Below are positions 9,789-51,458 of a stretch of 64,000 nt of DNA, in pieces. The notes under the pieces were generated by a model that saw only the letters and a list, made by a program, of their open reading frames with translations, had not been told where the DNA came from and did no database searches. The translations under genes and the position numbers were made by a program. Each line of letters begins with the position of its first letter. The first letter of the stretch is position 1. Origin of the DNA: Candidatus Poseidoniaceae archaeon (GTDB taxonomy: Archaea > Thermoplasmatota > Poseidoniia > Poseidoniales > Poseidoniaceae); assembly GCA_030747695.1 (NCBI GenBank), contig JASLKG010000004.1, positions 6,534 through 70,533 of the forward strand. The letters run 5' to 3'.

Positions 9789-10637
9789 ATGGGAATCAAA
9801 AAAATCGCTGTATTAGGTGCGGGGCAAATGGGCAATGGAATTACTCAGGTTGCAGCTTGTGCTGGGTACAAAGTCGTCATGATAGATATCAATCAAGAAT
9901 ATGTCGACAACGGGGTTGCAACGATAAACAAATCACTTTCTAAGTTGGTCGCAAAGGAACGGATGACTCAAGATGAGGCGAATAAAGCGATTGATAGGAT
10001 TTCAATTTCAATCGTCAGAGATGCGGCCGCAGATGCAGATTTAGTCATCGAAGCGATTCCTGAAATTCCAGATTTGAAATTTTCCACATTTGCAGAATTA
10101 GATCAAATTTGTAAACCTGAGGCGATACTTGCAAGTAATACAAGTAGTATTAGTATCAACGATATTGCTAATTCAACAAACCGTCCGGATAAAGTAATTG
10201 GAATGCATTTTATGAATCCAGTGCCAATTATGAAACTTGTAGAAATTATCAATGGTTCAGAGACAAGTGAACAGGTTACTAATGAAATAATTAAGGCGAG
10301 TGAAGTTATGGGAAAAATACCTCTATGTTGCAACGACTCGCCGGGTTTTGTTTCAAACAGAATACTATGCCCAATGATAAACGAAGCTATACTTACTCTT
10401 CAGGAGGGTGTAGCTGAACCTGAATCTATAGATGGAATTATGAAATTGGGAATGAATCATCCGATTGGCCCCTTAGCACTTTCAGATTTAATCGGTAATG
10501 ACACTGTTTTGCATATAATGAACGTACTTCACCAAGGGCTTAGTGACGACAAATATGCTCCAGCAGAATTACTAATAAAGATGGTCAAAGAGGGCAAGTT
10601 AGGGCGTAAATCCGGAGAAGGATTTTACAAATACTGA
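9789..10637 (+). CDS. hbd: 3-hydroxyacyl/3-hydroxybutyryl-CoA dehydrogenase
   Basis: Rossmann motif IAVLGAGQMGNGIAQV-like (KIAVLGAGQMGNGITQV), plus ASNTSS, GMHFMNPVP, PGFVSNR, HPIGPL and GRKSGEGFY. Confidence 0.9.
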   Translation: MGIKKIAVLGAGQMGNGITQVAACAGYKVVMIDINQEYVDNGVATINKSLSKLVAKERMTQDEANKAIDRISISIVRDAAADADLVIEAIPEIPDLKFSTFAELDQICKPEAILASNTSSISINDIANSTNRPDKVIGMHFMNPVPIMKLVEIINGSETSEQVTNEIIKASEVMGKIPLCCNDSPGFVSNRILCPMINEAILTLQEGVAEPESIDGIMKLGMNHPIGPLALSDLIGNDTVLHIMNVLHQGLSDDKYAPAELLIKMVKEGKLGRKSGEGFYKY

Positions 10638-11026: not shown

Positions 11027-14000
11027 ATGCGCCGGGCTCTATTTCTGTGCGGATTAATGGTTTTCGTCGTATTTTCTCCATTAGTTTCTGCAACTGATAC
11101 AGATGGAGACGGAATTGACGATTCAATCGATATCTGCAAATGGGCAGCAGGAACTGCAAATTCTACCTTAGGTATGGGGTGCCCTGACCGCGATGGTGAT
11201 GGATTAGCTGATTTCGAAGAAGAAATTAAGCACAATTGGGGTGAATCTGAGCGGGAAGCATATGATTACAATGATCCAGTTGGAGATGAACCAAGAGCAA
11301 TAGAATGGGCAGCCAATGGTTCAATGTACTATGCAGGAGGAGAAGACAATATTGTTGTAATGTTTGACTCTCTTGGAAATAACATGGGTGTATTACACCA
11401 AATGCCGGGAGATATTACAGAGATTCAGAGATCACCTGACGGTACTATGTTGGCAATATCTAGCGGTAACGGCGGGGCGCATGTCATCAATTCAACATCA
11501 GGAACTTTGATCACTAATTTGACTGCAAATGCAGGCACTATGATTAATTCTAGTTCCACTGTTTCTTCTCTTACTTGGTCAAATGATCAATCTAGAATCT
11601 TCTTCCATAATGGCACTACTGCAATCGTTTGGTTCAATACAACTACTTGGACACAGGAACGTCATATTCCAGGATTCATTGATTATCAAGGTTCTAGCTG
11701 GATGGGCGCAATGGATACTACTCCAGATGATAGTTTGATTATATTTTCAGCACTTGGTGAGATACACGCATATTGGGTAGAAAATGCGACATACGCATGG
11801 AACAATACTAGTCATACAGACTATATTCGTGCACTTAGAGTTAGCCCAGATGGAAGATACATGGTCTCAGGAGGAGATATGGAAATTATGTTTGTTCATA
11901 GTATTGATAATGGTCCTGTGCTAGTCCATACAGGTTTGATTTCAGATGAGATTCATGATATTGAGTTTTCTACAGATGGGGGTTCCGTTTTTGTTGCAGT
12001 TCGAGGTTCAGATGATGGTATTCGCGTTTTTGATACAGATGGTTGGTCAAGTTTGGGTGTCATTGATGGATTTGGTTCTTCCAATAGAAATCGCGGAACT
12101 GAAGGTTTGGCAATAAATCCAGATGGAGATAGATTGGTTGTTGGACATCGGCGCAGTGGCAGAATGTCTCTTCATATTGCCGCAGAAGGCCACTTAAGAG
12201 TTCATGGTGAAATGGCCACTCAATTGATGGAAAGCAGATGGAGAGATTGGTATCCTACTAATTCTGAATCAGTTAGAACCTGGGATGTTGATCGTGCTAC
12301 AACAACTTCCGAAATTTGTGCTGGTAAATCATATATAGGATCTCACCCAGCAGGAGTAAGTCCACTTTACGCAACAAAAAACTCTAGTTTTTCGAGCAAT
12401 GGGTTGTGGGATTGTACTAACACTGAAGATCAAATATTGGATGTTCCATATGGGCGGATGGCAGCAGCTATGTTTGTCAAGTCTGGAGGAGAAACAGAAA
12501 GTTGTATAGCAACGCAAGGCGGCTTATCAATGGGCCAATTGCGATGGATTACTTCCGATATGAGTAAAAATGCTTTGCAGCAGAATTCTGAAATGCCTGG
12601 GATAAATATGGCATCAATAGCTCCAAATGATGATGGTGACAGCATTCCCGAGTGGAAAGATTTGGATTCATCTTGCTCAAATTCTCCAATTGTACTTGCT
12701 CATCGTTGGGAAAACCGAACAGAACCATGGGTTGTAAAGGATAAATTACTATGTGAAAATTGTAATAATCCCGACACTTTCTATGGAGTCACTCCAGATC
12801 GTTATCGTGCAATAGTTGGTGGAGAACGTGATGATGTTCTCTTAGGTGTTGCCGCATCATCTGGAGAAGGAAGTATAGGATTTACTGAATTAGGATACAG
12901 TTTAACTAACGGGACGGGAGTTTATCTTATCCCATTAGTAGACAATTACACACATGGCGCTGCCGATGCGATATCGGAGGGAGGAGTTGCAGTAACTCCT
13001 TCGCTAAATGCATCTAGAGATGATACTTGGCCATTACAAACTAACCAAAGAATGTTCATGAATACTAACTCTCTTGGAAAGAATATAAATTTTGCAAGAT
13101 TTTTGGTATCTGATGTTGGAGCTATGCAATGGGAAGATCTTAGTTTTACACGCTTGGGAATTTGGGACACCTATCTATCATATAGGCTCCTAGGTGTGAA
13201 TGTAAGTTATCTCTTACCAGATCAAGATTCAGATGGAGTGTGGGATGGTATTGATATTTGTGCGAATACTGATTTAGGTTTGCCAGTAAACTCAGATGGT
13301 TGCGCCGATAATCAACTTGATAACGATAATGACGGTTACACAAATGATTTGGATGATTGTGATGATGATTATGGAACCTCTACTTTGGGTTCATTAGGAT
13401 GCCCAGATTCAGATGGAGATAACTGGGCTGATGACTTCGACTCACACCCTGGGGATTCATCGGAGTGGAATGATACTGATTCTGATGGGTACGGTGACAA
13501 TTCAGACCATTGCATATACGAGTGGGGTAATTCAACAAACGATACAATTGGTTGCCCAGATACGGATGGTGATGGTTGGTCAGATTCAGGAGATGCATTT
13601 GTAAATGATTCGAGTGAATGGTCAGATATTGATGGAGATGGAATTGGAGATAATACCGATGCATTCCCATATGAAAACACACAGTGGTCAGATGGTGATG
13701 GAGACGGATACGGAGATAACATAACTGGAATTGAGGGTGATACCTGTGCTAGCACTTGGGGAACTTCGAATAAAAATGGGATTTTTGGATGTGTAGACCG
13801 TGATGGAGATGGATGGGCAGATACAGATGATGATTTGCCAGACAATCCACTGCAGCATACAGACGTCGACGGGGACGGAGTCGGTGACGATGCTTCGATA
13901 GAGGATTACGATTGGTGTACAGATACAACTGAAGATGAATTGTCATTAGTTGATTCGAAGGGTTGTGGACCATCACAAAGGGATAGTGATTATGATACCA

Positions 14001-14842
14001 TAATGGACAATGCCGACCAATGCCCAAATACACACATCTCTCAATCAGCTAATGTGAATTCAGATGGATGTTCACCATCCGAGATTGATTTAGATGGTGA
14101 TGGTTTTTCCAGTGCAATTGATTGGGATGACCAGGATCCTGAACAGCATTCAGATAGTGATGGAGATGGATATGGTGACAATGGAAATGTGGCTGGCGGA
14201 GACAGTTGTCCAGTCGAGGAAGGAACTTCAAACAAGGATAAATTTGGATGTCCCGATTTAGATGGAGATGGTTGGTCAAATGATGGTGATGCACTTCCAT
14301 TTGACCAAACCCAGTGGGCAGATACTGACTCAGATGGATTTTATGATAACTGGGATGATCCTTCATGGAATGAATCACGAACAGTTGGGGAATTTGTACT
14401 TGGAGCAACTAATCCCGACAGATGCCCTGAACAATATTCTAATTTCGCAGACTACGAAGGTTGTCTTACGGCAAAAGTTGTCGAAAATGAAAATAGCGAA
14501 AGTGGGCAAGATGAATCCGATTCAGAAGGTGGTTTAGACCTTCTAACTATTATTGGAATGATTGCGGGAGGAATCATACTATGCCTCATCGGTGCAATTA
14601 CTGTTTTGATGAACAAAAAGAAGCCACAGATAAAAGAAGACAAAGTTAATGCTGCATTTGATGAAATCAAAGATGAATCTGATAACGAGGATGTGGAGCC
14701 AATCAATTATGTTCCAACATGGGAGGAATTACCTCCTGGTGAATGGTTGCCAACTGATGAAAATGGCACTAATTGGTACCTAGATTCAGAAGGTAAACAT
14801 TGGTATTCAGATACGGATGGTTATCATGTATGGGAAGAGTAA
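11027..14842 (+). CDS. Giant surface protein: signal peptide, beta-propeller-like repeats, thrombospondin type-3 (TSP3) Ca-binding repeat array, one TM and a cytoplasmic tail
   Basis: Signal peptide MRRALFLCGLMVFVVFSPLVSA. Repeats of type SPDGTMLAISSG, VSPDGRYMVSGG, FSTDGGSVFVA and INPDGDRLVVG resemble WD40-like/YVTN propeller blades. Many DxDxDGxxDxxD units are present. The TM is LLTIIGMIAGGIILCLIGAITVLM and is followed by a tail of about 75 aa. Confidence 0.85.
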   Translation: MRRALFLCGLMVFVVFSPLVSATDTDGDGIDDSIDICKWAAGTANSTLGMGCPDRDGDGLADFEEEIKHNWGESEREAYDYNDPVGDEPRAIEWAANGSMYYAGGEDNIVVMFDSLGNNMGVLHQMPGDITEIQRSPDGTMLAISSGNGGAHVINSTSGTLITNLTANAGTMINSSSTVSSLTWSNDQSRIFFHNGTTAIVWFNTTTWTQERHIPGFIDYQGSSWMGAMDTTPDDSLIIFSALGEIHAYWVENATYAWNNTSHTDYIRALRVSPDGRYMVSGGDMEIMFVHSIDNGPVLVHTGLISDEIHDIEFSTDGGSVFVAVRGSDDGIRVFDTDGWSSLGVIDGFGSSNRNRGTEGLAINPDGDRLVVGHRRSGRMSLHIAAEGHLRVHGEMATQLMESRWRDWYPTNSESVRTWDVDRATTTSEICAGKSYIGSHPAGVSPLYATKNSSFSSNGLWDCTNTEDQILDVPYGRMAAAMFVKSGGETESCIATQGGLSMGQLRWITSDMSKNALQQNSEMPGINMASIAPNDDGDSIPEWKDLDSSCSNSPIVLAHRWENRTEPWVVKDKLLCENCNNPDTFYGVTPDRYRAIVGGERDDVLLGVAASSGEGSIGFTELGYSLTNGTGVYLIPLVDNYTHGAADAISEGGVAVTPSLNASRDDTWPLQTNQRMFMNTNSLGKNINFARFLVSDVGAMQWEDLSFTRLGIWDTYLSYRLLGVNVSYLLPDQDSDGVWDGIDICANTDLGLPVNSDGCADNQLDNDNDGYTNDLDDCDDDYGTSTLGSLGCPDSDGDNWADDFDSHPGDSSEWNDTDSDGYGDNSDHCIYEWGNSTNDTIGCPDTDGDGWSDSGDAFVNDSSEWSDIDGDGIGDNTDAFPYENTQWSDGDGDGYGDNITGIEGDTCASTWGTSNKNGIFGCVDRDGDGWADTDDDLPDNPLQHTDVDGDGVGDDASIEDYDWCTDTTEDELSLVDSKGCGPSQRDSDYDTIMDNADQCPNTHISQSANVNSDGCSPSEIDLDGDGFSSAIDWDDQDPEQHSDSDGDGYGDNGNVAGGDSCPVEEGTSNKDKFGCPDLDGDGWSNDGDALPFDQTQWADTDSDGFYDNWDDPSWNESRTVGEFVLGATNPDRCPEQYSNFADYEGCLTAKVVENENSESGQDESDSEGGLDLLTIIGMIAGGIILCLIGAITVLMNKKKPQIKEDKVNAAFDEIKDESDNEDVEPINYVPTWEELPPGEWLPTDENGTNWYLDSEGKHWYSDTDGYHVWEE
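13216..14360 (+). repeat. In-frame tandem array of thrombospondin type-3 (TSP3)-like calcium-binding repeats
   Basis: A recurring module GCPDxDGDGWxDxxDAFxxDxxxWxDxDGDGYGDN appears at least five times (e.g. GCPDTDGDGWSDSGDAF..DIDGDGIGDN and GCPDLDGDGWSNDGDAL..DTDSDGFYDN). It generates several long antisense shadow ORFs. Confidence 0.7.
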
Positions 14843-19359: not shown

Positions 19360-20541
19360 TCACCTATTGTTATCGATAACCGAACGAATAGCATCAAGCA
19401 TATTTATTTCTGTTTCCAGTACATAATGGGAACCAAGTGAATCTACCAACCAACCCCTGGGTTTATCCGTTTTACCTAAATCCTCGAGTCTATTTGCTAT
19501 AGTTGCAGTCATTCCTGATTTTTTTATCTGTGCAAAAGCGCGATGCACCAAATCCTTTTGCTTGATACAACTTTCCAATTTGAATCCTATGCGTATTGAG
19601 CCTTTACAAAGGTCCTTCAATTCTGAAATGTGCTTAGTTGATTCACTCAATTTTATCTGTAAGTCGCCTTGTAATGATGCAATCTTACCTTCGACTTGTT
19701 CCGGTACAACGTAATCCAATACTGCAGCACTATGAATCCAGACCTCAATCTTATCATTTGCTAGCGCTTTTAATTCCTTTAGCATTTGATCAGGTTCAGG
19801 ACATTCAATAATTAGTGGTAGCCAGGACGGTGCGGAAACATTAGTGACTCCTACCACGCATGTGACATCCATGCCATAGCGAAATAAGTCATCTGCAATC
19901 GAATATCCTGTAGCGCCTGTTGATGTGTTTTGTATGTGCCTAATATCATCAATTGCACTTCTTGTTGCACCAAGAGTTACGACAACTTGTATTGAGTTAT
20001 CATTAACATGGTTACATAAATGAGCAACAATTTCTTCATGGTTAGGATTCTTTTTCTTTCCTTCGATTTCATCTCCCCATAGGATTTTTACTCCCATATT
20101 CCGGCATTCATTTACGACATCAGTTGTGACAGAATCTAGGGCTAAATCAAGATGCATAGAAGGTACCATCATAATTGGAGCATTTCTTCCATTGGCAGCG
20201 CTTAGAGCCATAAGTAGTGGCCCATTCATCAATCCATGTACAAATGATGCCATGATATTACGTGTAGCTGGTGTTACCAAAACCGCATCATATTCAGAAA
20301 GTGCGGATAAATCACCATCCCAATCGGTAATTACATCACCTTGTGAAGCCCATCTTACAGCTAATGGTGTGATTATTTCTTGTGAAGAAGGCGTCATTAT
20401 TACAGTTATTTTTGCACCATGTCTACGTAGTTCCCTAGCTAGTCTAACAGTATCAACTGCTGCAATGCCACCTGTCACTCCTAAGAGTACATGTTTTCCC
20501 TTTAGGGAAAGCCCTCGTACCTCAACGTCGGTGTCACGCAT
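19360..20541 (-). CDS. coaBC: Bifunctional phosphopantothenoylcysteine decarboxylase / phosphopantothenate-cysteine ligase
   Basis: N-terminal flavoprotein motif LLGVTGGIAAVDTVRLARELRRHGA. The C-terminal CoaB half carries STGATGYSIAD and SAAVLDY. Confidence 0.9.
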   Translation of the reverse strand: MRDTDVEVRGLSLKGKHVLLGVTGGIAAVDTVRLARELRRHGAKITVIMTPSSQEIITPLAVRWASQGDVITDWDGDLSALSEYDAVLVTPATRNIMASFVHGLMNGPLLMALSAANGRNAPIMMVPSMHLDLALDSVTTDVVNECRNMGVKILWGDEIEGKKKNPNHEEIVAHLCNHVNDNSIQVVVTLGATRSAIDDIRHIQNTSTGATGYSIADDLFRYGMDVTCVVGVTNVSAPSWLPLIIECPEPDQMLKELKALANDKIEVWIHSAAVLDYVVPEQVEGKIASLQGDLQIKLSESTKHISELKDLCKGSIRIGFKLESCIKQKDLVHRAFAQIKKSGMTATIANRLEDLGKTDKPRGWLVDSLGSHYVLETEINMLDAIRSVIDNNR

Positions 20542-20608: not shown

Positions 20609-21187
20609 ATGCCTATGGCAGGTGCTGATGAGATGGTTATTGCAGGCTCGCGTCCGCAACATAGAAACCCAATTGATGCCTTACATTCACGTACTAGCAC
20701 AGTGCTTTTGATAGATTGTCTTGTAGTTTTTTTGATATTCAGTTCATTTTCATATGTGATCGCAATAATTCCCACACTAATTTGTTGTTTGATTTGGTTT
20801 AATTACAAACGTAAAGCAGAATGGGCATATTGGTTCGCTCCATTACTACTTTCTGCAATTTCGCTATTTTTCCTATTACTACTATTATTGAACTTATATC
20901 TTGTATTCGCTGATAATTCTGGTAGTTGGTTTATGATAATAATAATGGCTTGGGCGTCATTTTCTACAATTAGATTCATTCGTATACACTTTCATCCAGT
21001 GTATAAATTAGGTTACAGTGGGCAATATGTACAATCCTCAGACGCTAATCTAGAACCGGGTGAAATGCTCGCAACATGTCCTACTTGTTTGGCAGTATTG
21101 GCAATTAATCCACTAATGCTATCGATAGAAGACAAATGCCCTCATTGTGAATCATCATTGGTTATGACCTCTGGAGAGGAGGAATGA
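20609..21187 (+). CDS. Hypothetical 4-TM membrane protein with a C-terminal zinc ribbon
   Basis: Four hydrophobic helices are followed by CPTC..(20)..CPHC. The start is uncertain: TTG 20582 in the track, first ATG at 20609. Confidence 0.5.
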   Translation: MPMAGADEMVIAGSRPQHRNPIDALHSRTSTVLLIDCLVVFLIFSSFSYVIAIIPTLICCLIWFNYKRKAEWAYWFAPLLLSAISLFFLLLLLLNLYLVFADNSGSWFMIIIMAWASFSTIRFIRIHFHPVYKLGYSGQYVQSSDANLEPGEMLATCPTCLAVLAINPLMLSIEDKCPHCESSLVMTSGEEE

Positions 21188-21193
21188 CTAGTA

Positions 21194-22219
21194 TTAACGA
21201 GATGCTAGTGTAAGGTTCTTCCACATGTCCTCTGGTACTTCCATTGCTAACCTTAGTCCGCCCATAGCACCAAGTCTTACTGGGTCATCAACAACATGAA
21301 CATTTACATCACCCATATCTGACAATTTACGCTCAACCATTGCGCCCAATCCTCTTATTCCGGAACCACCGCCTGCCAAAACCATGTTTCGACGGAATTC
21401 ATCATGGAATTCCGGGTTTGATCCTGCAATGAGTAATTTTGCATTCTCTACAATTGGTTCGACAATTGATTCACAGGCTAGCTGCATACAATCAGTAATA
21501 TCTAGAGTCATAGCTTTACCTTCAATCGAAAAATCAACCATGATTGGATCGTCTGGCGTCGATGTTGAAACAAAGGAATGTTCTTCCTTCCAGCGCCTTG
21601 CCATATCTTTTGTTATTTGTGCGCCATTGTACTTACGTTGAATTTCTTCAATGATTTGACCGTCAACATAATCTCCAGCATATCCTGTATGCATTTGATC
21701 ACCGGGTCCAGGAATTGTTCCATATACACGGCATAAATCAGTAGTTCCTGCTCCAATATCGATAACCAAAGTATGCTCAATCATGTCAAGAGCATATGCT
21801 ACAGCGAAAGGCTCAGAAATAATCATTGCAGCATTGACGGAACCTGCAGCAGCATCAAAGATTGAAGTCTTGTCAACGTGACTTGCCTCCGCAGGCGCTC
21901 CTATTACAGCGACAACACGATCATAATCTTCAGGATCTGATAATCCAATCAAGTGAGTAATGAAGTGAGCAATGAATTCTCTATCCTCGGTAGTATCCTT
22001 AATCACACCAAGTTCTAGAGGACGGAATAGATTCAAAGCAAGTCTGTTCTTTAGTGCTTCATTACCAAAAAGGACATCCCTCTTCAAGAAATTCTTAGCT
22101 ATAGGATCCTTTGGTGTACCAATAACGGTAAGCTCTTCTTCTTCATGACTATCACTGGATACCATGACAGATCTGAAAGTTCCTAAGTCTATTCCTATGT
22201 AAAGTACGTCTTTAGCCAT
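21194..22219 (-). CDS. Actin-like ATPase, MamK-like family (MreB/actin/Hsp70 superfamily)
   Basis: Actin-fold motifs: GIDLGTFRS (phosphate 1), VIGAPAEAS, ISEPFAVAYALD, VIDIGAGTTDLC (phosphate 2) and MVLAGGGSGIRGL (adenosine). The segments GTIPGPGDQ, AGDYVD and EEHSFV are co-linear with MamK as I recall it (GTVPGPEDQ, AGNYVD, KEQFSFV). Confidence 0.8.
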   Translation of the reverse strand: MAKDVLYIGIDLGTFRSVMVSSDSHEEEELTVIGTPKDPIAKNFLKRDVLFGNEALKNRLALNLFRPLELGVIKDTTEDREFIAHFITHLIGLSDPEDYDRVVAVIGAPAEASHVDKTSIFDAAAGSVNAAMIISEPFAVAYALDMIEHTLVIDIGAGTTDLCRVYGTIPGPGDQMHTGYAGDYVDGQIIEEIQRKYNGAQITKDMARRWKEEHSFVSTSTPDDPIMVDFSIEGKAMTLDITDCMQLACESIVEPIVENAKLLIAGSNPEFHDEFRRNMVLAGGGSGIRGLGAMVERKLSDMGDVNVHVVDDPVRLGAMGGLRLAMEVPEDMWKNLTLASR

Positions 22220-22313
22220 ATGACTCGCCTATCCGTGCCAGTGTTAAGCACCTTATGAATAATGCCTATAATTCTTGCAAATACTATGCAAATAATAATT
22301 CTATAGAACGGTG

Positions 22314-23315
22314 TTAGCACCACGATTCGCAAGTACTACAGTACCATGCAGCATACTCTGGGTATAAATCTGCCATTTCACCACATCCTGTACATTCCTT
22401 GAGTGCATGATTACCAAATATTTGTTGCACAATTTGAACATGATGTGTATCATCAATTCCTAATTGTTGTCGCATTGCCCACAGCATTTGATCTTCTGAA
22501 GGTGAAATAATTCCATCTTCCAAAACAATTTGTACTACTATTCGGTAATCTTCAAGAATCTTAACATCGCGAGGATCCATTGAAACACCGCCTTTTTCAG
22601 CAACAATGTCAGTTCCACCTGGGTCATCAACAAATATAACCAATGATGCTGCATCGAATTCTGAATTTCTTAATTCTAATAGAATTGTACTCCCCTCAAG
22701 ATTGGCGTAAACTAATTTTGAAAATTTGTTAATGACGTTGGTAATCGACCGTGCAGTATCTTCTGAACTTCTACCTCGTCTCCAACCAGTTTCACTCGCT
22801 TCATCATATGCATAAAATTCTGTACCAAATCCTGGATATTCTAATCGCACTTCTTCGCCTCCGTCGAAGCCATTAGCAACAATAGTAATACTACCTACAG
22901 TTGTATCTACTAAATTATCCTCATCATCAAATGAAATCATCAGAGGTTTTCTTTCTTCAGCTGCAGCATTAAAGTGGCCGCTCATTCCACTCATCCATTT
23001 ATCTTCTAGGCGTGAAAGTGATTTTTGTTGTTCTGAAGATAGTCCTTTTTCAATTCCCAAAATATCACTAAGATGCCCCTGTTCCATTTCTTGTTTGAAT
23101 TCATTAATTAGTTCTTCATCGCGACGGTGATTTTCAGGTGGTTTAAATGATTTTGAAACGTGGTCTGGATCTTTCCATTCATAGGAACATCGTGCACAAA
23201 CAAGGTAACCCTCCATGGTAGAAGGTTGCTTTTCACCACCGCATCGGGGACAATCTCCTTCCTCATTTACACTAAGATTTTCTTGTGCTTCTCGGCGGCC
23301 TTTCCTTATACCCAT
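22314..23315 (-). CDS. Hypothetical protein with N- and C-terminal zinc ribbons and a possible TerB-like helical module
   Basis: N-terminal CPRCGG..CARCSYEW and C-terminal CTGCG..CSTCESWC. The stretch EDGIISPSEDQMLWAMRQQLGIDDTH weakly resembles TerB/DjlA-N repeats. It lies co-directionally upstream of the actin-like gene. Confidence 0.6.
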   Translation of the reverse strand: MGIRKGRREAQENLSVNEEGDCPRCGGEKQPSTMEGYLVCARCSYEWKDPDHVSKSFKPPENHRRDEELINEFKQEMEQGHLSDILGIEKGLSSEQQKSLSRLEDKWMSGMSGHFNAAAEERKPLMISFDDEDNLVDTTVGSITIVANGFDGGEEVRLEYPGFGTEFYAYDEASETGWRRGRSSEDTARSITNVINKFSKLVYANLEGSTILLELRNSEFDAASLVIFVDDPGGTDIVAEKGGVSMDPRDVKILEDYRIVVQIVLEDGIISPSEDQMLWAMRQQLGIDDTHHVQIVQQIFGNHALKECTGCGEMADLYPEYAAWYCSTCESWC

Positions 23316-25270: not shown

Positions 25271-25609
25271 TCAATCGAAATATTCACCGCAACTAGAACA
25301 AAAGTCGAGTTCACTTTCAACTGATGCGCCACAACTTGGGCATAAGCCACCTATTTTTGCAATTGCTGAAAGGGTCATTTTAGGAGCTGCTTTTTCTGGC
25401 ATTGTCATTGCTTCTATTATTTTCATAGGCTCCTTACCAATTTTAACCAATTCTCCAAATTTTCTTTGGAACTCGATTGCTTCCAGTAAAGTAGCCTCAA
25501 CTTGCCACATCCTTTTTTGGCGCTCAACTTTATCCGTGATATTTTCACAAGCCTCAAGTTCAGTTTGAAGATGACGAATGAATTCATCGAGGCTAGCGCT
25601 TTCTGACAT
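25271..25609 (-). CDS. Hypothetical helical protein with a C-terminal zinc ribbon
   Basis: A coiled-coil-like body ends in CPSCG..CSSCGEYF. The track start (GTG 25666) leaves only 11 nt to the divergent IPK gene; ATG 25609 leaves 68 nt. Confidence 0.5.
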   Translation of the reverse strand: MSESASLDEFIRHLQTELEACENITDKVERQKRMWQVEATLLEAIEFQRKFGELVKIGKEPMKIIEAMTMPEKAAPKMTLSAIAKIGGLCPSCGASVESELDFCSSCGEYFD

Positions 25610-25677
25610 GCTTAATCGTGTGTATAACTCCCTTGTAAATCCAATGCACACATTAGCACCTTCCACTTGCGGTATAC

Positions 25678-26489: not shown

Positions 26490-28217
26490 ATGAACTATGG
26501 ATTAACCCAAGTTCCCACTATGGAAATTAGTGATGAAGACTCTTCGTTGCTTTCCGGTCTCGACAAGGTGCAGAAAGATCTGATGTCTGAAGCGATTATT
26601 CTTGTATCTGAATTGGATGAAGTAATCGGACCTATGTCAAAGGCTGAAGCACATTCAGGTTCGGGAAACTATCATCGTGCTTTCAGTGTATTACTTTTCG
26701 ATAGCAGTGGTAGGCTACTAATCCAAAAGCGAGCAGCACATAAAATCACTTTTCCTGGTGTTTGGGCTAATACTTGTTGTTCACATCCACTTTATAGCGA
26801 CGAGGAAATGGAGGCTGCAAACCATATGGGAGTCAAACGCGCCGCAGTACGTAAACTTCAGCATGAACTAGGTATTTCTGAAGAACAGATACCAATAGAA
26901 AAATTTCAATTTGTAACTAGGATGAGATATCAGGCAAGGCAGGATGAAATTTGGATTGAACGAGAGATTGATCATTGTCTGGTAATACATTCAGATGTTG
27001 ATTTGAAAATCAATTCAAATGAAGTTTGTGAAACACGTTGGGTTTCTCAAGAAGATTTGGAAGAAATGTTGTTATCTGAAGATAGTGAAAACATAATCGC
27101 ACCATGGTTTAGGTGCATAGCAGCACGAATAATGACTGATGATTGGTGGAGGCCAGACTGTGTAAAATCTGATAATATCATACACGATATGGGCGATGTT
27201 TCGCACATGCTTCCTAACGCGAGGGGCGCTAATTTAATTACGAGCATTGAAGAAATCAAACCACTAGTTGAAAGCCGTATTGAAAGAGCCCTAACTCACA
27301 CATCGCACAAACGCCTTTCCGGTGCAATGATGCATCTGGTTATAGGCGGTGGGAAGAGACTTAGAGCAACATTACCTTGGTTAGTGGCAAAGGCTGTAGG
27401 TGATACACATTCAGGTTTATTGGATGTAGGTGCGGCTATAGAGACAATCCATAATTTCACCTTGGTACATGATGACATAATGGATGATGATGATATTAGG
27501 CGTGGTCGTCCAGCTGTGCATATTGAGTATGGTTTACCAACAGCAATCAATGCCGGTGATGCAATGTTGGCAATTGCCTTTGAAGCGATGGCAGTTGCTG
27601 AAGGAATAGAGCCAGAACTGCTTCCATTTCTTGTGAAAAGAATTGGAAGAATGGTTCGTAGAGTAAGTGAAGGTCAGCAATTAGATATTGATTTTGAAGA
27701 TCGAATAGCAGTTGAAGAGGATGAATATATCGAAATGATACGTGGAAAAACAGCAGTAATGTTCCTAACATGCGCAGAAGTTGGAGCGCATTTGGCAGGT
27801 GCTGATGAAGAAACAATATCTTGTATGCACGATTGGGGGCTTGCAGTAGGATTATGCTTCCAATTAATGGATGATTTAATTGATGTGTTGTCGGATGATG
27901 ATACTCTAGGAAAACCTAGTGGTTCGGATGTTGCGCAAGGTAAGCGAACACTGATGGTTATACATGCACTTAGGCAACCTGATAGTTCTGAAAAAGATGA
28001 TTTGTTAGCTGCCCTAGGTAAAGGTGATGATGCTACAAAGGAAATGGTATTCAAGGCACACAATGCTTTGGATAAACTGGGGTCAATTTCTTATGCAAGG
28101 AGAAAAGCAGAATCATATCACAAAGAAGCTCATGCATGTCTTGATAGGTTGCCAGAATCTCCAGCATTAGTTGCTCTTAGGGAATTAACAGACTATCAAC
28201 TAAAACGCATCTTCTAG
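26490..28217 (+). CDS. Fusion protein: type-1 isopentenyl-diphosphate isomerase (Nudix) plus geranylgeranyl diphosphate synthase
   Basis: The N-terminal half has HRAFSVLLF, WANTCCSHP and EREIDH (IDI1 signatures). The C-terminal half has LVHDDIMDDDDIRRGRP (first Asp-rich motif) and FQLMDDLID (second Asp-rich motif). It is one uninterrupted 575-codon frame. Confidence 0.85.
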   Translation: MNYGLTQVPTMEISDEDSSLLSGLDKVQKDLMSEAIILVSELDEVIGPMSKAEAHSGSGNYHRAFSVLLFDSSGRLLIQKRAAHKITFPGVWANTCCSHPLYSDEEMEAANHMGVKRAAVRKLQHELGISEEQIPIEKFQFVTRMRYQARQDEIWIEREIDHCLVIHSDVDLKINSNEVCETRWVSQEDLEEMLLSEDSENIIAPWFRCIAARIMTDDWWRPDCVKSDNIIHDMGDVSHMLPNARGANLITSIEEIKPLVESRIERALTHTSHKRLSGAMMHLVIGGGKRLRATLPWLVAKAVGDTHSGLLDVGAAIETIHNFTLVHDDIMDDDDIRRGRPAVHIEYGLPTAINAGDAMLAIAFEAMAVAEGIEPELLPFLVKRIGRMVRRVSEGQQLDIDFEDRIAVEEDEYIEMIRGKTAVMFLTCAEVGAHLAGADEETISCMHDWGLAVGLCFQLMDDLIDVLSDDDTLGKPSGSDVAQGKRTLMVIHALRQPDSSEKDDLLAALGKGDDATKEMVFKAHNALDKLGSISYARRKAESYHKEAHACLDRLPESPALVALRELTDYQLKRIF

Positions 28218-37344: not shown

Positions 37345-38126
37345 GCCTCCTGTGAGTTGACAAGTTCAGCAAGTTCAGCGCAGCGCTGCTGTGCGACCTG
37401 AAGAATCTCGTCGAATTCGGCCGGCGTGAAAGTTCCCTTTAACCCCTTCTGAAGAGAATGTAAGTGACCTTCATCACCAAGTGTTATGTGAATTCTCTCA
37501 TTTCCACCTAATTCTTCTTCATCATTTGCATCAAGAACATACCTTCCTCCAACTCGTGTAAAAGAGCACATTGTCGGTGTCATTGAAACTGCTAATGGGT
37601 AATCCTCGCCCACATCAAATCTCTCTGCAGGAACTATCGCTGTTCGAAGAGCAGCAATAGCTCCAAGTGCGCATGCATCGAATATATTTCCTTTATCAGA
37701 AAGTACATGTATGTCAATCATTATTCCCAGAACCTTTTCTCCAGGTATAATGCACAATGAGTCCATATCGATACATCCAGATTCACGGATCCCTCTATCG
37801 ACAACTCTTCCCAATTCTATAGATTCAGGTGAAGGAGGTCCAGGTTCGTATTTTCTTCCAGCGACCGGGCGTAATTCTGCACCACACATTAGTGATCCTT
37901 GAGCAGGTCTATCAGGCCATGGTGTACGAACTTCAAATTTAACTCCTGCATAAATTATTGTTTCTCCCCAAGTTACTTTTGCTGAACCTTCAGCATTATA
38001 GAGACAGTTTGTTTCTAATTTTATGTCACGGGATTCCCAACGACTTCTCCCATCGATTCTCTGATCATTTTCAGCTAAGCGCTTTAATTCCTGCTGCAAT
38101 AATTTTGGAACAAGTTCAACCATCAA
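37341..38126 (-). CDS. rrp42: Exosome complex subunit Rrp42
   Basis: RNase PH-like fold: RIDGRSRWESRDIKLE and NAEGSAKVTWGET. It overlaps its neighbours by 4 nt. Confidence 0.9.
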   Translation of the reverse strand: MMVELVPKLLQQELKRLAENDQRIDGRSRWESRDIKLETNCLYNAEGSAKVTWGETIIYAGVKFEVRTPWPDRPAQGSLMCGAELRPVAGRKYEPGPPSPESIELGRVVDRGIRESGCIDMDSLCIIPGEKVLGIMIDIHVLSDKGNIFDACALGAIAALRTAIVPAERFDVGEDYPLAVSMTPTMCSFTRVGGRYVLDANDEEELGGNERIHITLGDEGHLHSLQKGLKGTFTPAEFDEILQVAQQRCAELAELVNSQEA

Positions 38127-47135: not shown

Positions 47136-48071
47136 ATGGCGACTGATTTGTATGTTGATCGTTCGCTTGCTACTATAATCGGTTTTATTGGTTTATTTTT
47201 ATTGTTAACTAGTTGGCGTATCGCTAGAAATAGGTCACAATCGATTGCTGTAGTTGGATGGGTTTTAACAGGTTTTTATTTCTTTAATGATACACCTTAT
47301 TATCTGGCACAGAATGACAGTGTGCTCACAGTTATGTCAGCATCGACATTACCTGGTGCGTTAGCAATTGCTTGGTGGGAAGTAAACAGTTCCGATGAAA
47401 AAGACAGGAAAGCACTTCACTGGTTTAGGGGAGCTGTGGGTGCAGCAGGCTTGCCCTATCTTTTGATCGCACATATCCCTTGGCTCAGCGTTATTGCTAT
47501 CTGGTTTGTTGCTTGGCAAGCATGCTTTTTCCTGTCATTCGCAGGCGGGCAAGAAATTCAGTTGGGAGAGACGTATGTTAATCCAGCAAATGGCAATAGT
47601 ATTGCTTGGTCAGAGTGGGATGGCAATCGTTGGTTCTTAAGTGAGGAGATGAGAGAACATTCATTTCACACTCAATTGGTTAGTGATACTGGAGAAATCG
47701 GAATAAATTTTGTTCTTGCGTGTACAGCAATTCAAAGCATGATCATATTTGTCGGTGCAATATCTGTACTCGATATGAGTTGGAAAAAACGAGTGCGTGC
47801 ATTATTCATTTCATTAACTCTAATCCATATACTGAATCTATTTCGAAATGCAGGATTAATTTGGTTGCAATTAGGATATCCTGATTGGATATGGTTGGGA
47901 TTGAATATTTTCGATTTCGGACATATTTATGCCTCAAGATTTGGTTCACTTGCTGCTATGTTTTTATTGGCATTAGTTTTGTTTGAAATGTTACCACAAA
48001 TGCATCGTCATGTTTTACGCTTACTTAGTCCACTAAATTTGGGAAAAAGACCCACAAATTCAGTCAAATAA
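47136..48071 (+). CDS. Archaeosortase, ArtA-like
   Basis: Polytopic membrane protein. VLACTAIQSMIIFVG (catalytic Cys), ILNLFRNAG (Arg) and FDFGHIY (His) are co-linear with the archaeosortase/exosortase Cys-Arg-His pattern and with my recollection of Haloferax ArtA (VLACTG, ALNLLRT). Confidence 0.75.
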   Translation: MATDLYVDRSLATIIGFIGLFLLLTSWRIARNRSQSIAVVGWVLTGFYFFNDTPYYLAQNDSVLTVMSASTLPGALAIAWWEVNSSDEKDRKALHWFRGAVGAAGLPYLLIAHIPWLSVIAIWFVAWQACFFLSFAGGQEIQLGETYVNPANGNSIAWSEWDGNRWFLSEEMREHSFHTQLVSDTGEIGINFVLACTAIQSMIIFVGAISVLDMSWKKRVRALFISLTLIHILNLFRNAGLIWLQLGYPDWIWLGLNIFDFGHIYASRFGSLAAMFLLALVLFEMLPQMHRHVLRLLSPLNLGKRPTNSVK

Positions 48072-51000
48072 GTCTGACACAGTAACATGCTCAGCAGGCT
48101 CTTCAATCGTTCCAATGTCCATTGAAGGTGATTGGGCTGATTTTACCTCGCCTTGAATGAAAGCTTCGCTCAGGGGGTCATCATTGCGTTCCCATGATAC
48201 TTCTCTTTCGTCCTTTCTATTTACGAATAGTGCATTCCCTAGAAGCGCAATAAGAATACAACAAACGACAACAGATATTGTGTATATTATGTCGTTATCC
48301 ACTGTCGATATAAAATCAGAATTATCGCCAACTCCATCACCATCAGTGTCAACAGATTCTGTTGGATCATCAGGAAATTGGTCTTCTGCGTCAACAACGC
48401 CATCACCGTCTCTGTCAAAGGCATCAAATGTGGTTGTACACGTTTCCACGGCATCATCAATTTCGTTTCTGCTTATTTGTGAATCATCATTTCTATCTAT
48501 AGTAAAAAAGTTATAATCATTTAGCCATTGAACTGAAGACATATATTCGAGTGAAACTCGGTTTGAATCGAATTGATCAAAGATTATTGACAACTCATTT
48601 TCACAACTACACAATATTTGTTTTAATTCAGCGATATCAATTACACTATCCTTGTTCAGATCTATTTCATCAAAGTCAACATCTTGATAGAATCTATCTA
48701 GTTCACTTTCAACAATATCGTCATCATTATCGAGGTCTATTTCCTGAAATTCTTCTATTACTAAATCTATACATCCTGTAATTTCAATCGATTCTTGTTC
48801 CGGTTCTGGAACAGGTTCAATGCCAGGCCCAATTTCCATCCATGTAGCAACAATACCTAATTCGACAGTATCTTCATTAACATCCATTGTGATATCTATT
48901 CTGTCATTGACAAACCAGATATTTATTTGTCTTTGAACACCATCACCCTCAGCGTTTTCAATAGAATTCCCTTGTCGCCCTCCAAATCCAAAGTCGTCAA
49001 ATCCAGTCTCGGAAAATTCAGCAGATAATTCGATATCCCCGCTATCTCCCCAAGTTGTGATAGATAATTCAGTTGCGATTGAGTCTAAATCAATAAAGAA
49101 AAGTAATTGCGCATCCTTTGGGGCATTTATTCCGGATATTTCTTCACCATTATACAATTGGATTGGTTCTCCATCATAGGACCAAACATAACGATCCTCA
49201 AAAGATGCAGTAATCATTACTTGGCTAAAAGGGTCCTCATCTGTACCAAGTAAGATATACCATCGGCCAGGAGTTGGATCATTGAATGCAATTTTATCTC
49301 CAGCACCTGGGGAATTAGAATGCTTGTCATATGTACTCCATGTTGGATATTGTTCATACCTCATTGACAACTGAGCCTCACCATTACCATCGCTCAAATC
49401 AACCTCTAATCGTTCTACACCTTCCTCGACGTCGATGTAGAAGTATTGGTCTAGACCATTGTAACCGCTGAGAGGCCCATATGAAATGCTAGGGAATAAT
49501 TCGACGGCATCTTCTGGCTCAGAGTTGTCTGGAGGATATGTAAAATCTGCCTGAATAGTTACTTCACGACATCCTCTAAAGGCTGTCATCATAACATAAT
49601 ATATTCCTTCCTTAGCATCGAATAGACTTACCTCTTCATTGTTTCCTTGGTTTGAAGAATGTGCAGTTAATGAAGAGTCACTAGTAACGGTTTCTGATTC
49701 AATAAATGCCCATGGATTACTGGCGTCTATCCATGGAAGTACTCCTCTACCAATATGCAGGTCACATTGGCCATTTCCACCCCAAGTTTCTACCTTAAGT
49801 TCTGAAAGGGGTTCCATCAACTCAACATAGTAATACTGTGGATCTCCGTTATTGGGCTGAATACCTTGATTCGTAACTGCAATCCCATCATTTAGTTCTA
49901 GCATGTCCTCTAAGCTTGGCGGTTCAGGAGCAAGTTCCCAATTTCCTTTGATGAATAGTTCATCACTGTCACTGTTTGCTACAATAGTGATCCACCAGGT
50001 ACCTTTCTCTGGCCACTCCATACTAATGGCGCCATAGCCCCACCAAAATTCTATTTCATACTCGTAATCCCACTTTGTAGGGATTACTTCATGTGAGATA
50101 TATACACTAAATGTTGGTTCAGATTCAAAATCATCCTCATCAAATTCAAAACTTCCAGATGATTCCACTGTTATGCTAGCAAATTGTGTATTCTCTGGTA
50201 ATTCTGCAAAGAAAAGGTATGTGTCACCTTCCATGATCTCTTCTTCAATAACCATGTCTTGATTATTTGAAAGCTCAATTGCTTGTGCGACAATTGTACC
50301 ATCTGGCATAACCCATGCTGCGCCTATAATGTCACCACTCCTACCTTGGTAATCTTCGGTTGTACTACCTTCGCCTTCTGTAAATTGCCATGCAGATTCA
50401 TGGGCAGCGTTACTGATAATTAGATCATCAATCATGCCTCTGAAATAATTGCAATCACATCCTGCACCCATACGCCCAATGTACAGTTCATCGCAATCAG
50501 AGCCAGATTGAAAACAGTCGTTAGAACCGAAATCTCCTTGCGGAATTTGTGAATCATTTACATCAATCATTCCTGCCGAATTATTGCCTATGAAAAATTC
50601 ACCACCTCCCTGGGTATCGACAATTACTCTCACATGCGTCCAAACATTTTCCTGAATTGATATATTTGACATAGGATTGGATGAAATTGAATATTGATTC
50701 GAATAAGCCAAATAACCATCGTTAAGGTATAATCCCCATCCATAATCTCCTAACATTGTAATAAATTGAATTCCTACTTTATCAGGAACATTAATCCAAG
50801 CCTCAATCTCAATATGTGCCTCAAACTCTGGTAGAGTTTCACTAATTACGACATGATCATTGTCTCCATCAAATCTTAGTGCATAATTGGCTCCCTCTCC
50901 AACTTCCACAACACCGTAGACTGGAAAATATTGGGGGTCATCTTCGAGATCATTCCAACTTCCTGGCTGTATTGTACCCATGTTTGTACCAGTAATATGC

Positions 51001-51404
51001 ACATAGTCTTCATCATCACCAGTGTCGGGTTGAGAATCTCCCCAATTACGGTACAAGAAAGGAGTTCCATCATGCCAACGAAAATCACTTTCAGAGTTTT
51101 GATCACTAAGACCAATCCAAAGGTGTCTAGTTGTATTATTATCAACTGCGAATGTGTCATAAAGCCATTGATTCTCTGTAGCATTATTTACGGTTACTAA
51201 ATACCCATCAAGACTTCTCGCTTTCTCAGCTGCATCGGTCCATGAGGATGCAGTAAGGAGGTGATATGTGTGCCCATTTTCTGGATTAATTTCAGTACTA
51301 ATTACTTGTATTTCTTCTATAGATTCTGCCGATACTGTACTTACTAATGAGCTATATGATACCAAAATTAGCATCAATAGTGTCAGTGCCGACTTAATCT
51401 TCAT
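48060..51404 (-). CDS. Giant surface protein: signal peptide, C-type-lectin-like domain, LamG/ConA-like domain, PPC-like beta-sandwich repeats, EF-hand-like pair, thrombospondin type-3 (TSP3) repeats, TM and cytoplasmic tail
   Basis: Signal peptide MKIKSALTLLMLILVSYSSLVSTVSA. C-type-lectin-like domain: WIGLSDQNSESDFRWHDG..YRNWGDSQPD..WNDLED. LamG-like: LRFDGDNDHVV..YIGRMG..FRGMIDDLIISN. PPC-like: YYYVEL..GNGQCDLHIG and YFYIDV..GNGEAQLSM. EF-hand-like: DLNKDSVIDIAELK. TSP3: DRDGDGVVDAED..DTDGDGVGDN. TM: ISVVVCCILIALLGNALFV. The start is at ATG 51404 (the track used TTG 51422). Confidence 0.8.
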   Translation of the reverse strand: MKIKSALTLLMLILVSYSSLVSTVSAESIEEIQVISTEINPENGHTYHLLTASSWTDAAEKARSLDGYLVTVNNATENQWLYDTFAVDNNTTRHLWIGLSDQNSESDFRWHDGTPFLYRNWGDSQPDTGDDEDYVHITGTNMGTIQPGSWNDLEDDPQYFPVYGVVEVGEGANYALRFDGDNDHVVISETLPEFEAHIEIEAWINVPDKVGIQFITMLGDYGWGLYLNDGYLAYSNQYSISSNPMSNISIQENVWTHVRVIVDTQGGGEFFIGNNSAGMIDVNDSQIPQGDFGSNDCFQSGSDCDELYIGRMGAGCDCNYFRGMIDDLIISNAAHESAWQFTEGEGSTTEDYQGRSGDIIGAAWVMPDGTIVAQAIELSNNQDMVIEEEIMEGDTYLFFAELPENTQFASITVESSGSFEFDEDDFESEPTFSVYISHEVIPTKWDYEYEIEFWWGYGAISMEWPEKGTWWITIVANSDSDELFIKGNWELAPEPPSLEDMLELNDGIAVTNQGIQPNNGDPQYYYVELMEPLSELKVETWGGNGQCDLHIGRGVLPWIDASNPWAFIESETVTSDSSLTAHSSNQGNNEEVSLFDAKEGIYYVMMTAFRGCREVTIQADFTYPPDNSEPEDAVELFPSISYGPLSGYNGLDQYFYIDVEEGVERLEVDLSDGNGEAQLSMRYEQYPTWSTYDKHSNSPGAGDKIAFNDPTPGRWYILLGTDEDPFSQVMITASFEDRYVWSYDGEPIQLYNGEEISGINAPKDAQLLFFIDLDSIATELSITTWGDSGDIELSAEFSETGFDDFGFGGRQGNSIENAEGDGVQRQINIWFVNDRIDITMDVNEDTVELGIVATWMEIGPGIEPVPEPEQESIEITGCIDLVIEEFQEIDLDNDDDIVESELDRFYQDVDFDEIDLNKDSVIDIAELKQILCSCENELSIIFDQFDSNRVSLEYMSSVQWLNDYNFFTIDRNDDSQISRNEIDDAVETCTTTFDAFDRDGDGVVDAEDQFPDDPTESVDTDGDGVGDNSDFISTVDNDIIYTISVVVCCILIALLGNALFVNRKDEREVSWERNDDPLSEAFIQGEVKSAQSPSMDIGTIEEPAEHVTVSDLFD

Positions 51405-51458
51405 GAAAATGTGGAACACCAACTAATTATTGAAACCTTTCACTAGCAGTCAGAGATA

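Follow-up and report, generated by a model that had tools for sequence, protein, structure and literature searches.

What would an actin resembling MamK, the actin of magnetotactic bacteria, be doing amid the housekeeping genes of an archaeon, and does the gene that precedes it belong to the same system? The question is raised by a stretch of 64,000 nucleotides (64 kb, the window in what follows) of a Candidatus Poseidoniaceae archaeon. In it, a gene for a MamK-like actin-fold ATPase of 341 amino acids (aa; 21194..22219, minus strand) follows, on the same strand and after a spacer of 94 nt, a gene for a 333-aa protein (22314..23315, minus strand), just as an earlier note, made from the sequence alone, had placed the two open reading frames (ORFs). 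We find that the first product has an actin fold and represents an order-specific subfamily of MamK-like actins, and that a dedicated accessory gene, the second one (the partner), is stably linked to the actin gene. We consider it moderately probable that the two make up a cytoskeletal module specific to Poseidoniales, in which a filament-forming actin of the MamK/BeeR group is served by a dedicated adaptor or regulator encoded upstream. No description of such a system was found in the literature, nor any paper in which MreB, an actin homologue or MamK is linked to Poseidoniales or Marine Group II, and in this sense the undescribed cytoskeletal or positioning module that the earlier note had imagined stands, while its function is something that we infer. 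Poseidoniales, or Marine Group II, are abundant in the ocean worldwide, being among the most numerous of planktonic archaea; they have yet to be cultured, and next to nothing has been learned about how their cells work.

Linkage of the actin gene to its upstream partner

As to the linkage of the two genes, it was followed through 80 Poseidoniales loci possessing the partner gene, with one genome taken per species. In 78 of these loci, which are all 78 of the informative ones, the partner is followed immediately by the actin gene in the same orientation; in the other two, the contig breaks off less than about 220 nt from the partner. The pairing that the earlier note had suspected from a single contig thus extends across the order. 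In a count of strict adjacency, 69 of 70 loci retain the pair; the one that does not is from a long-read metagenome-assembled genome (L077:5989-7000) in which the partner is in place, yet split by a frameshift into pieces of 191 aa and 186 aa, either through a sequencing error or because it is a pseudogene. Spacer length was determined at 75 loci: 74 of them have 51-237 nt, and the one from this same genome has 533 nt. Breakpoints flank the pair on both sides, with the thiolase gene adjacent to the partner in 30 of 70 loci and a membrane protein gene adjacent to the actin in 50 of 69.

The partner, delineated by the ORF list, by homologue searches and by conservation, is an acidic protein (isoelectric point, pI, 4.56). 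Its homologues fall into 308 clusters when searched with the single sequence and into 340 when searched with a profile of diverse members; the matches listed are full-length, and the organism names they carry are only those of Poseidoniales or of unclassified Euryarchaeota. Among the matches found, the family is restricted to Poseidoniales. The partner matches no Pfam or NCBIfam family above cut-off, and its AlphaFold model (predicted local distance difference test, pLDDT, 75.6), compared to the PDB with Foldseek, retrieved nothing meaningful, the matches (best E 2e-3, template modelling (TM) score 0.22) being to phage tail and flagellin domains.

A number of elements can nevertheless be recognized along the protein. 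A conserved basic peptide, IRKGRREAxENL, precedes an N-terminal zinc ribbon (C22, C25, C40 and C43; residues about 20-50; 23187..23252, minus strand), whose weak matches, to ribbons of the IS1595, TFIIB and eL43 types, are all below the Pfam cut-offs; the sole match of a PDB profile search with the partner is likewise weak and is to an eL43-type ribbon (E 0.004). Helices at residues 63-110 in the AlphaFold model are followed by an acidic linear motif, EERKPLMISFDDEDN (residues 120-134; 22914..22958, minus strand), singled out by conservation and by disorder prediction. This is the best-conserved short element of the partner (at least 98% over 78 species), and its core, RKPLMISFDDEDN, falls in a predicted disordered linker (residues 113-135, pLDDT below 50). 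Further on are a central alpha/beta domain (residues 139-245, pLDDT about 85-93; 22581..22901, minus strand), a helical region with an invariant DGIISPSEDQxLW that is weakly TerB-like (residues 254-303; 22407..22556, minus strand), and a C-terminal zinc ribbon (C308, C311, C326 and C329; residues 305-333; 22329..22394, minus strand), the latter kept in all the full-length homologues aligned. For the helical region, of 37 family members examined, 16 match TerB (best E 0.0016) and 19 match ENT, none of them reaching the curated cut-offs.

The earlier note had characterized the partner as a double-zinc-ribbon protein, and both ribbons are indeed present in the window. However, in one subclade of the Thalassarchaeaceae (L071, L074 and L076; genes at about 6001-6940) the partner is 312-314 aa long and is devoid of the N-terminal ribbon, while retaining the basic N-terminal peptide, the acidic motif, the alpha/beta domain and the C-terminal ribbon. 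The double ribbon is therefore not a defining feature of the family, nor do the ribbons represent the core of the protein. In the comparison of species, partner sequences are 48-82% identical, versus 75-95% for the actins, and so the partner diverges faster, as is typical of adaptors.

A parallel to this pair is provided by a second MamK-like paralogue, P0249 (L081:6001-8381; loci L087-L166), 45% identical to the window actin. Its gene, absent from the 64-kb window, is located on contigs of Poseidoniales, with a gene for subtilase on one side and one for GGGP synthase on the other. Of the 69 metagenomic loci long enough to show what comes after the paralogue, 68 have there a gene for an acidic coiled-coil protein of 421-426 aa whose tail, otherwise variable, ends in a conserved RPP[SA]PGG[ST]GDPV[LVI][FY][DE][DE]E. 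The last part of this terminus, GDPV[LVI][FY][DE][DE]E, resembles the PLMISFDDED of the window partner. Homology of the two partners was considered and rejected, at an hhalign probability of 0.2%, so that the likeness does not extend beyond the short motif. When expressed as a regular expression, the motif occurs once in the 27,647 residues of the window ORFs, and this occurrence is in the partner; 14 bacterial fusion proteins related to the actin (see below) do not have it in their N-terminal extensions. We regard the motif, hypothetically, as a candidate for a docking peptide shared by the two systems.

The alternative to a functional link, and the one that survives best, is that the adjacency represents inherited gene order and nothing else, with the actin acting unaided or served by factors from other loci, and with the zinc-ribbon protein unrelated to it, being involved, for example, in nucleic-acid metabolism. 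Pairs of unrelated genes in the same region are equally stable (the isopentenyl phosphate kinase gene and the gene for a 131-aa zinc-ribbon protein, zn131, in 60 of 60 loci; zn131 and Tpt1 in 64 of 66; the membrane protein gene and CoaBC in 53 of 53), and synteny within one order must thus be seen as supportive and not as decisive. A promoter-like TTCAT(A/G)A element upstream of each of the two genes also agrees with this explanation, as does the generic nature of the partner's ribbon matches, to transcription factors, ribosomal proteins and transposases. On the other hand, the pair is the sole unit in the region that has breakpoints on both sides and is itself never broken, the partner family is found only in the order that has this actin clade, and the paralogous actin has a dedicated neighbour of its own, with a similar acidic motif. 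Overall, we judge inherited order by itself to be a rather unlikely explanation.

An order-specific subfamily of MamK-like actins

The identity of the 341-aa protein, as established from the ORF list, NCBIfam, a PDB sequence search and Foldseek, is that of an actin-fold protein to which MamK is nearest, BeeR next, with MreB far behind. With the NCBIfam model for MamK (NF040964) it scores 355.9 bits over its full length, the curated cut-off, which applies to the whole-protein score, being 400 bits and thus missed. The scores with other NCBIfam models are much lower and none reaches its cut-off: 208.6 bits for BeeR (NF053558; cut-off 530), 86, 80 and 57 bits for the MreB models (cut-offs 293-515), 53.7 bits for salactin (cut-off 400) and 15.7 bits for ParM (cut-off 417), while EutJ and FtsA are at 26 and 20 bits and the Hsp70 and sugar-kinase models likewise at about 26 bits or lower. 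Of the Pfam models, Salactin is passed (44.8 versus 27.1 bits), by a match far weaker than that to MamK, Actin gives 30 bits, and Volactin, at 21.9 bits, is below its cut-off of 35. In the PDB sequence search the three best matches are all MamK (5LJW, 5LJV and 5JYG; E 2e-74), followed by BeeR (5e-44) and then by MreB (1e-14). The AlphaFold model of the actin is of moderate quality (pLDDT 69; predicted TM score 0.72), with subdomain IB (residues 29-75) poorly predicted, owing to an alignment that is shallow, its 23 sequences all being at least 77% identical. Even so, the best three chains that it retrieves with Foldseek are MamK (5LJW and 5LJV; E 6e-26 to 1e-25, TM 0.71-0.76), ahead of BeeR (E 3e-23), MreB (about 1e-16) and eukaryotic actins. 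No chain of ParM, Ta0583 or crenactin appeared among the PDB sequence matches at E of 0.01 or lower or among the top 50 of Foldseek.

The collinearity with MamK that the earlier note had proposed is borne out by the alignment, in which residues 2-336 correspond to MamK residues 8-341 with one gap of a single residue and one of two. All the motifs listed in that note are seen: GIDLGT, VIGAPA.AS, SEPF, DIGAGTTD, GT(I/V)PGP.DQ, AG.YVD, FSFV, AGGGS.IRGL and LRLA.E.P...W. Two of these, which the note had taken for features foreign to MreB, are so in the alignment of solved structures, where GTxPGPxDQ and AGDxxD are missing from MreB; both, however, are present in BeeR, and they are thus signatures of the MamK/BeeR group and not of MamK alone. 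In pairwise identity the window actin is at 39.6% to MamK of strain AMB-1, at 33% to BeeR and at 27% to Thermotoga maritima MreB. The key residues are those of the phosphate-1 motif (G9-T14), E136 (equivalent to MamK E143), the phosphate-2 motif (D154-D161) and the adenosine motif (A282-S286). Throughout the 73 Poseidoniales species compared, D11, G13, T14, E136, D154, G156, G158, T159, D161 and G283-S286 are invariant, the actins being 75-95% identical across both Poseidoniales families. Judging by this conservation of residues, the nucleotide-binding/ATPase site is intact.

As to its relatives, 1114 of them were recovered when 1.84 billion representatives were searched exhaustively, and, short fragments aside, no full-length relative has between about 50% and 75% identity to the window actin, a gap that marks the Poseidoniales actins as an isolated group. 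In a neighbour-joining tree (86 sequences, 334 columns, 100 bootstraps, rooted on MreB), whose deep backbone is unresolved, the Poseidoniales actins are monophyletic (100%), their sister is the second Poseidoniales paralogue, P0249 (98%), and the two paralogues together join a clade of bacterial fusion proteins (76%). BeeR makes up a separate clade (92%), and AMB-1 MamK groups with P0314 and P0275, apart from the window actin. The earlier note had held out two other placements, among ordinary MreB and among ATPases of the Hsp70 or sugar-kinase kind; both are at odds with the profile scores given above. Scores with the MamK model are 472-508 bits for sequences close to AMB-1 MamK, 425 for a Nitrospira protein of the ‘MamK family’, 414 for a bacterial fusion of the KSB1 type, 330 for the second paralogue and 226 for BeeR. 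The best name, in our opinion, is MamK-like actin, of an order-specific subfamily. It is not a MamK in the strict sense, as its score is below the curated cut-off and it is positioned outside the magnetosome MamK clade, and so the likeness to MamK proposed in the earlier note holds at the level of best match, in profile, PDB and Foldseek searches alike, and not at the level of family.

The occurrence of MamK-like proteins outside magnetotactic bacteria is by no means limited to this order. One example is the archaea of the ANME-2/Methanosarcinales, and further examples are found in Acidobacteriota, Gemmatimonadota, Verrucomicrobiota and KSB1; archaeal members of the MamK branch had been noted as early as 2009 (PMC2651865). 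The bacterial fusion proteins (P0244-P0259; loci L085 and L086) are 520-1230 aa long, and in them a C-terminal MamK-like domain is preceded by an N-terminal coiled coil and then by 200-900 aa of disordered sequence rich in K, P and E, an architecture that is itself uncharacterized. One of the fusions is named for candidate division KSB1, and the contig neighbourhoods of the fusions look bacterial. MamK-like actins thus emerge as general-purpose cytoskeletal proteins, far beyond magnetotaxis, and the order-wide conserved actin of Poseidoniales would add a new branch to the few archaeal actin systems known, namely crenactin, Ta0583, salactin, volactin and the Asgard actins, one with a partner confined to its lineage and with a paralogous second pair of actin and partner.

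These data also bear on the public annotation. According to it, the protein would be a cell-shape determinant of the MreB type, since homologues are named MreB in the NCBI and JGI records, as a ‘rod shape-determining protein’, and the Pfam MreB_Mbl gathering score is indeed passed (87 versus 27 bits), by a model that spans the wider superfamily and not MreB alone. The more specific NCBIfam models and the identities cited above favour MamK over MreB by a large difference, and the gene has no neighbours of the MreC, MreD or RodZ type. Archaea, moreover, are not known to have a peptidoglycan-elongation machinery that such a protein could guide. The cells of Marine Group II are coccoid, with a size of about 0.7 µm (PMC6864105), and for such an organism the public name is misleading. 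We give this explanation little credence.

A second possibility, to our mind just as improbable, is that of an actin-fold ATPase of MamK-like descent that does not polymerize and has a chaperone-like or regulatory role instead. The main argument for it is D273, which is aligned to A278 of MamK and is D in 64, N in eight and T in one of the 73 species, A278D being the non-polymerizing mutant of MamK according to the title of PDB entry 5LJW; the poorly predicted subdomain IB could be counted as a second. However, the equivalent position is variable (A, D, P or S) in the MamK/BeeR group, including BeeR, which does polymerize, and the poor prediction of IB is explained by the shallow alignment. 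All four subdomains are present, collinear with MamK over the full length but for the two small gaps, and the models for Hsp70, sugar kinases, EutJ and FtsA barely respond. What D273 does imply is that any filament contact at this site must differ from that of MamK.

Finally, the positioning of a magnetosome-like organelle, as by MamK, has sequence similarity to MamK and nothing else in its favour, and it can be dismissed as extremely improbable, given that, as the earlier note had remarked, no magnetosome genes are visible (none of the magnetosome families among the 45 window ORFs scanned with Pfam), that the actin gene is located amid housekeeping genes, below the curated MamK score and outside the AMB-1 MamK clade, and that proteins resembling MamK are common in the lineages listed above, for which magnetotaxis is not known.

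A proposed actin-adaptor module

How might the two proteins work together? In the module that we propose, the actin would polymerize upon ATP binding, the partner would dock on it via the invariant acidic peptide RKPLMISFDDEDN in its flexible linker, and the alpha/beta domain, the TerB-like helices and the zinc ribbon or ribbons of the partner would engage a cargo or a control point, the partner thus acting as an adaptor, as a regulator of assembly, or as both. We infer, rather than observe, the formation of filaments by the window actin, its physical interaction with the partner, the roles of the motif and of the partner, and the existence of a cargo. Given the small, coccoid cells and the absence of magnetosome genes, a role in positioning, segregation or division appears likelier than one in the maintenance of a rod shape. 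As for the cargo, DNA would be our leading guess, with another cellular structure as a further one.

Several observations weigh against a module of this kind. Gene order is generally stable in Poseidoniales, and adjacency alone is thus weak evidence of a functional link. The motif shared by the two partners is short, and both of these proteins are acidic. The window partner has no recognizable cargo-binding domain, and a pI of 4.6 would argue against general DNA binding. The spacer contains a promoter-like element as found before the genes for aIF5A and EF-2, and the pair may not be a single transcript. No centromere-like repeat array was found near the two genes. The position of D273 at the site of the non-polymerizing MamK mutation, while compatible with filaments, would speak against an identical filament contact.

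Of the systems known, the one built on MamK is the closest. Among relatives that are solved and curated, MamK is the nearest: the two proteins, about 40% identical, are collinear throughout, and they share the catalytic residues (E143 and D161 in MamK) as well as the GTxPGPxDQ and AGxYVD signatures. MamK functions together with an acidic accessory protein whose gene lies close by (PMC13170167). It differs in belonging, along with MamJ/LimJ and McaA/McaB, to magnetotactic bacteria, the host here being an archaeon with no magnetosome genes in the window, and the window actin differs in its score (356 versus 400 bits), in its separate clade and in the Asp at the A278 interface position. The partner is set apart from MamJ by the family and fold searches, and not by a direct comparison of the two. 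BeeR (PDB 8R2N), a bacterial actin forming three-stranded tubes, is second best by sequence, profile and fold and has the PGPxDQ and AGD motifs in common with the window actin, which, however, is only 33% identical to it, is far below its cut-off of 530 bits and is free of the BeeR insertions.

In gene organization, the likeness is to ParM-ParR, AlfA-AlfB, Alp7A-Alp7R and crenactin-arcadin-2, in all of which an actin-like gene is found beside a small dedicated partner. The C-termini of ParR and arcadin-2 dock by a short peptide, and the window partner may do likewise. Unlike in the ParM-ParR type, the window partner precedes the actin gene instead of following it, it is acidic, with zinc ribbons and no ribbon-helix-helix fold, the ParM score of the actin is 16 bits, and the locus is chromosomal, order-wide and of a housekeeping character, not plasmid-borne. 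There are no centromere-like repeats either: a repeat search uncovered a single repeat near the two genes, an 11-nt direct repeat in two copies in a non-conserved part of the spacer, so that a ParMRC-type mechanism, which would call for parC-like repeats, has no support from a cis-acting site here. Salactin and volactin, finally, are archaeal actin homologues as well, and the family closest to salactin has been reported to be MamK (PMC10746226), but the window actin gives 45-54 bits with the salactin models and is below cut-off with that of volactin, and these proteins belong to another lineage and have other neighbours.

The theme of an actin with a dedicated adaptor is thus a known one, and it is the proposed Poseidoniales version that would be new. 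Few dedicated accessory factors of bacterial actins are known, these being MamJ, ParR, AlfB and Alp7R (PMC13170167), and the pair described here presents a concrete actin and putative adaptor, expressible in a surrogate host. A bolder version of the proposal, which we put forward only tentatively, is that Poseidoniales possess two paralogous MamK-like systems whose unrelated adaptors have in common an acidic docking peptide of the hydrophobic-F-D-D-E-D type, the system of the window being an order-universal positioner of the chromosome or of an organelle, with an adaptor of a new fold.

The spacer and the genomic surroundings

The spacer between the two genes (22220..22313, minus strand) was inspected by sequence and by comparison across species. 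It contains a conserved promoter-like GGCATTATTCATAAGGTG some 40 nt ahead of the actin start codon (ATG), including the element TTCATAAGG (22251..22259, minus strand), and, directly before that codon, the sequence GGCGAGT. A near-identical GGCAATTGTCATAAG is present upstream of the aIF5A gene (14924), the core TTTCATAA upstream of the EF-2 gene (30861), and TTCATGATA about 30 nt before the start of the partner. More generally, several genes that are highly expressed have an element of the GGCAWTNTTCATAAG type 25-55 nt ahead of them, and such an element is probably the BRE/TATA-like (B recognition element and TATA box) promoter signal of this organism. From the elements in front of them, actin and partner probably have a promoter each, and with one of its own before the actin the two genes may not be co-transcribed. 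Just after the stop codon of the partner lies a palindrome, TTCTATAGAA (CTATAGAW; 22299..22308), that is conserved across species. It is over-represented in the window, with 15 sites versus 4.2 expected; further copies include those at 10424..10433, 37815..37824 and 51315..51324, and most of the other copies are within ORFs.

Downstream, the actin gene is met by the convergent gene for the membrane protein (20609..21187, plus strand; alternative start 20582), with four transmembrane segments and a C-terminal zinc ribbon (CxxC...CxxC), to which the earlier note had drawn attention. The convergence is as it had described, but as a third component of the module this gene was rejected: it is located beside the actin gene in 50 of 69 loci and beside CoaBC (19360..20541, minus strand) in 53 of 53, thus travelling with the latter and not with the actin.

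The pair is surrounded by a compact neighbourhood of genes for isoprenoid lipids. The mevalonate/isoprenoid genes in the window are those for thiolase, for isopentenyl phosphate kinase and for a fusion of IDI (isopentenyl diphosphate isomerase) with GGPP (geranylgeranyl diphosphate) synthase, the latter being a single ORF of 575 aa (26490..28217, plus strand) in which an IDI-type NUDIX domain and a polyprenyl synthase are joined, next to the isopentenyl phosphate kinase gene and near that for thiolase. The gene constantly paired with that for the kinase is zn131 (25271..25666, minus strand), whose product has a C-terminal zinc ribbon of the DUF7575 type.

The G+C content of the window is about 40% throughout. 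The 45 ORFs scanned belong to housekeeping, transport and surface-protein families, or have no Pfam match. Archaeal housekeeping genes are well represented, including those for aIF5A, EF-2, ribosomal proteins S7 and S12, the exosome subunits Rrp41, Rrp42 and Rrp4, Cbf5, TiaS, the proteasome alpha subunit, SBDS and an RFC-like ATPase, and a scan with Rfam identified two tRNAs and nothing else. In keeping with these genes, the source names of close homologues point to a Poseidoniales archaeon of the Poseidoniaceae type. Three large ORFs, for a WD40 beta-propeller protein of 1271 aa (11027..14842, plus strand), for a protein of 1120 aa with C-type lectin and PPC domains (48060..51422, minus strand) and for a protein of 1761 aa (51459..56744, minus strand), probably encode surface or secreted proteins.

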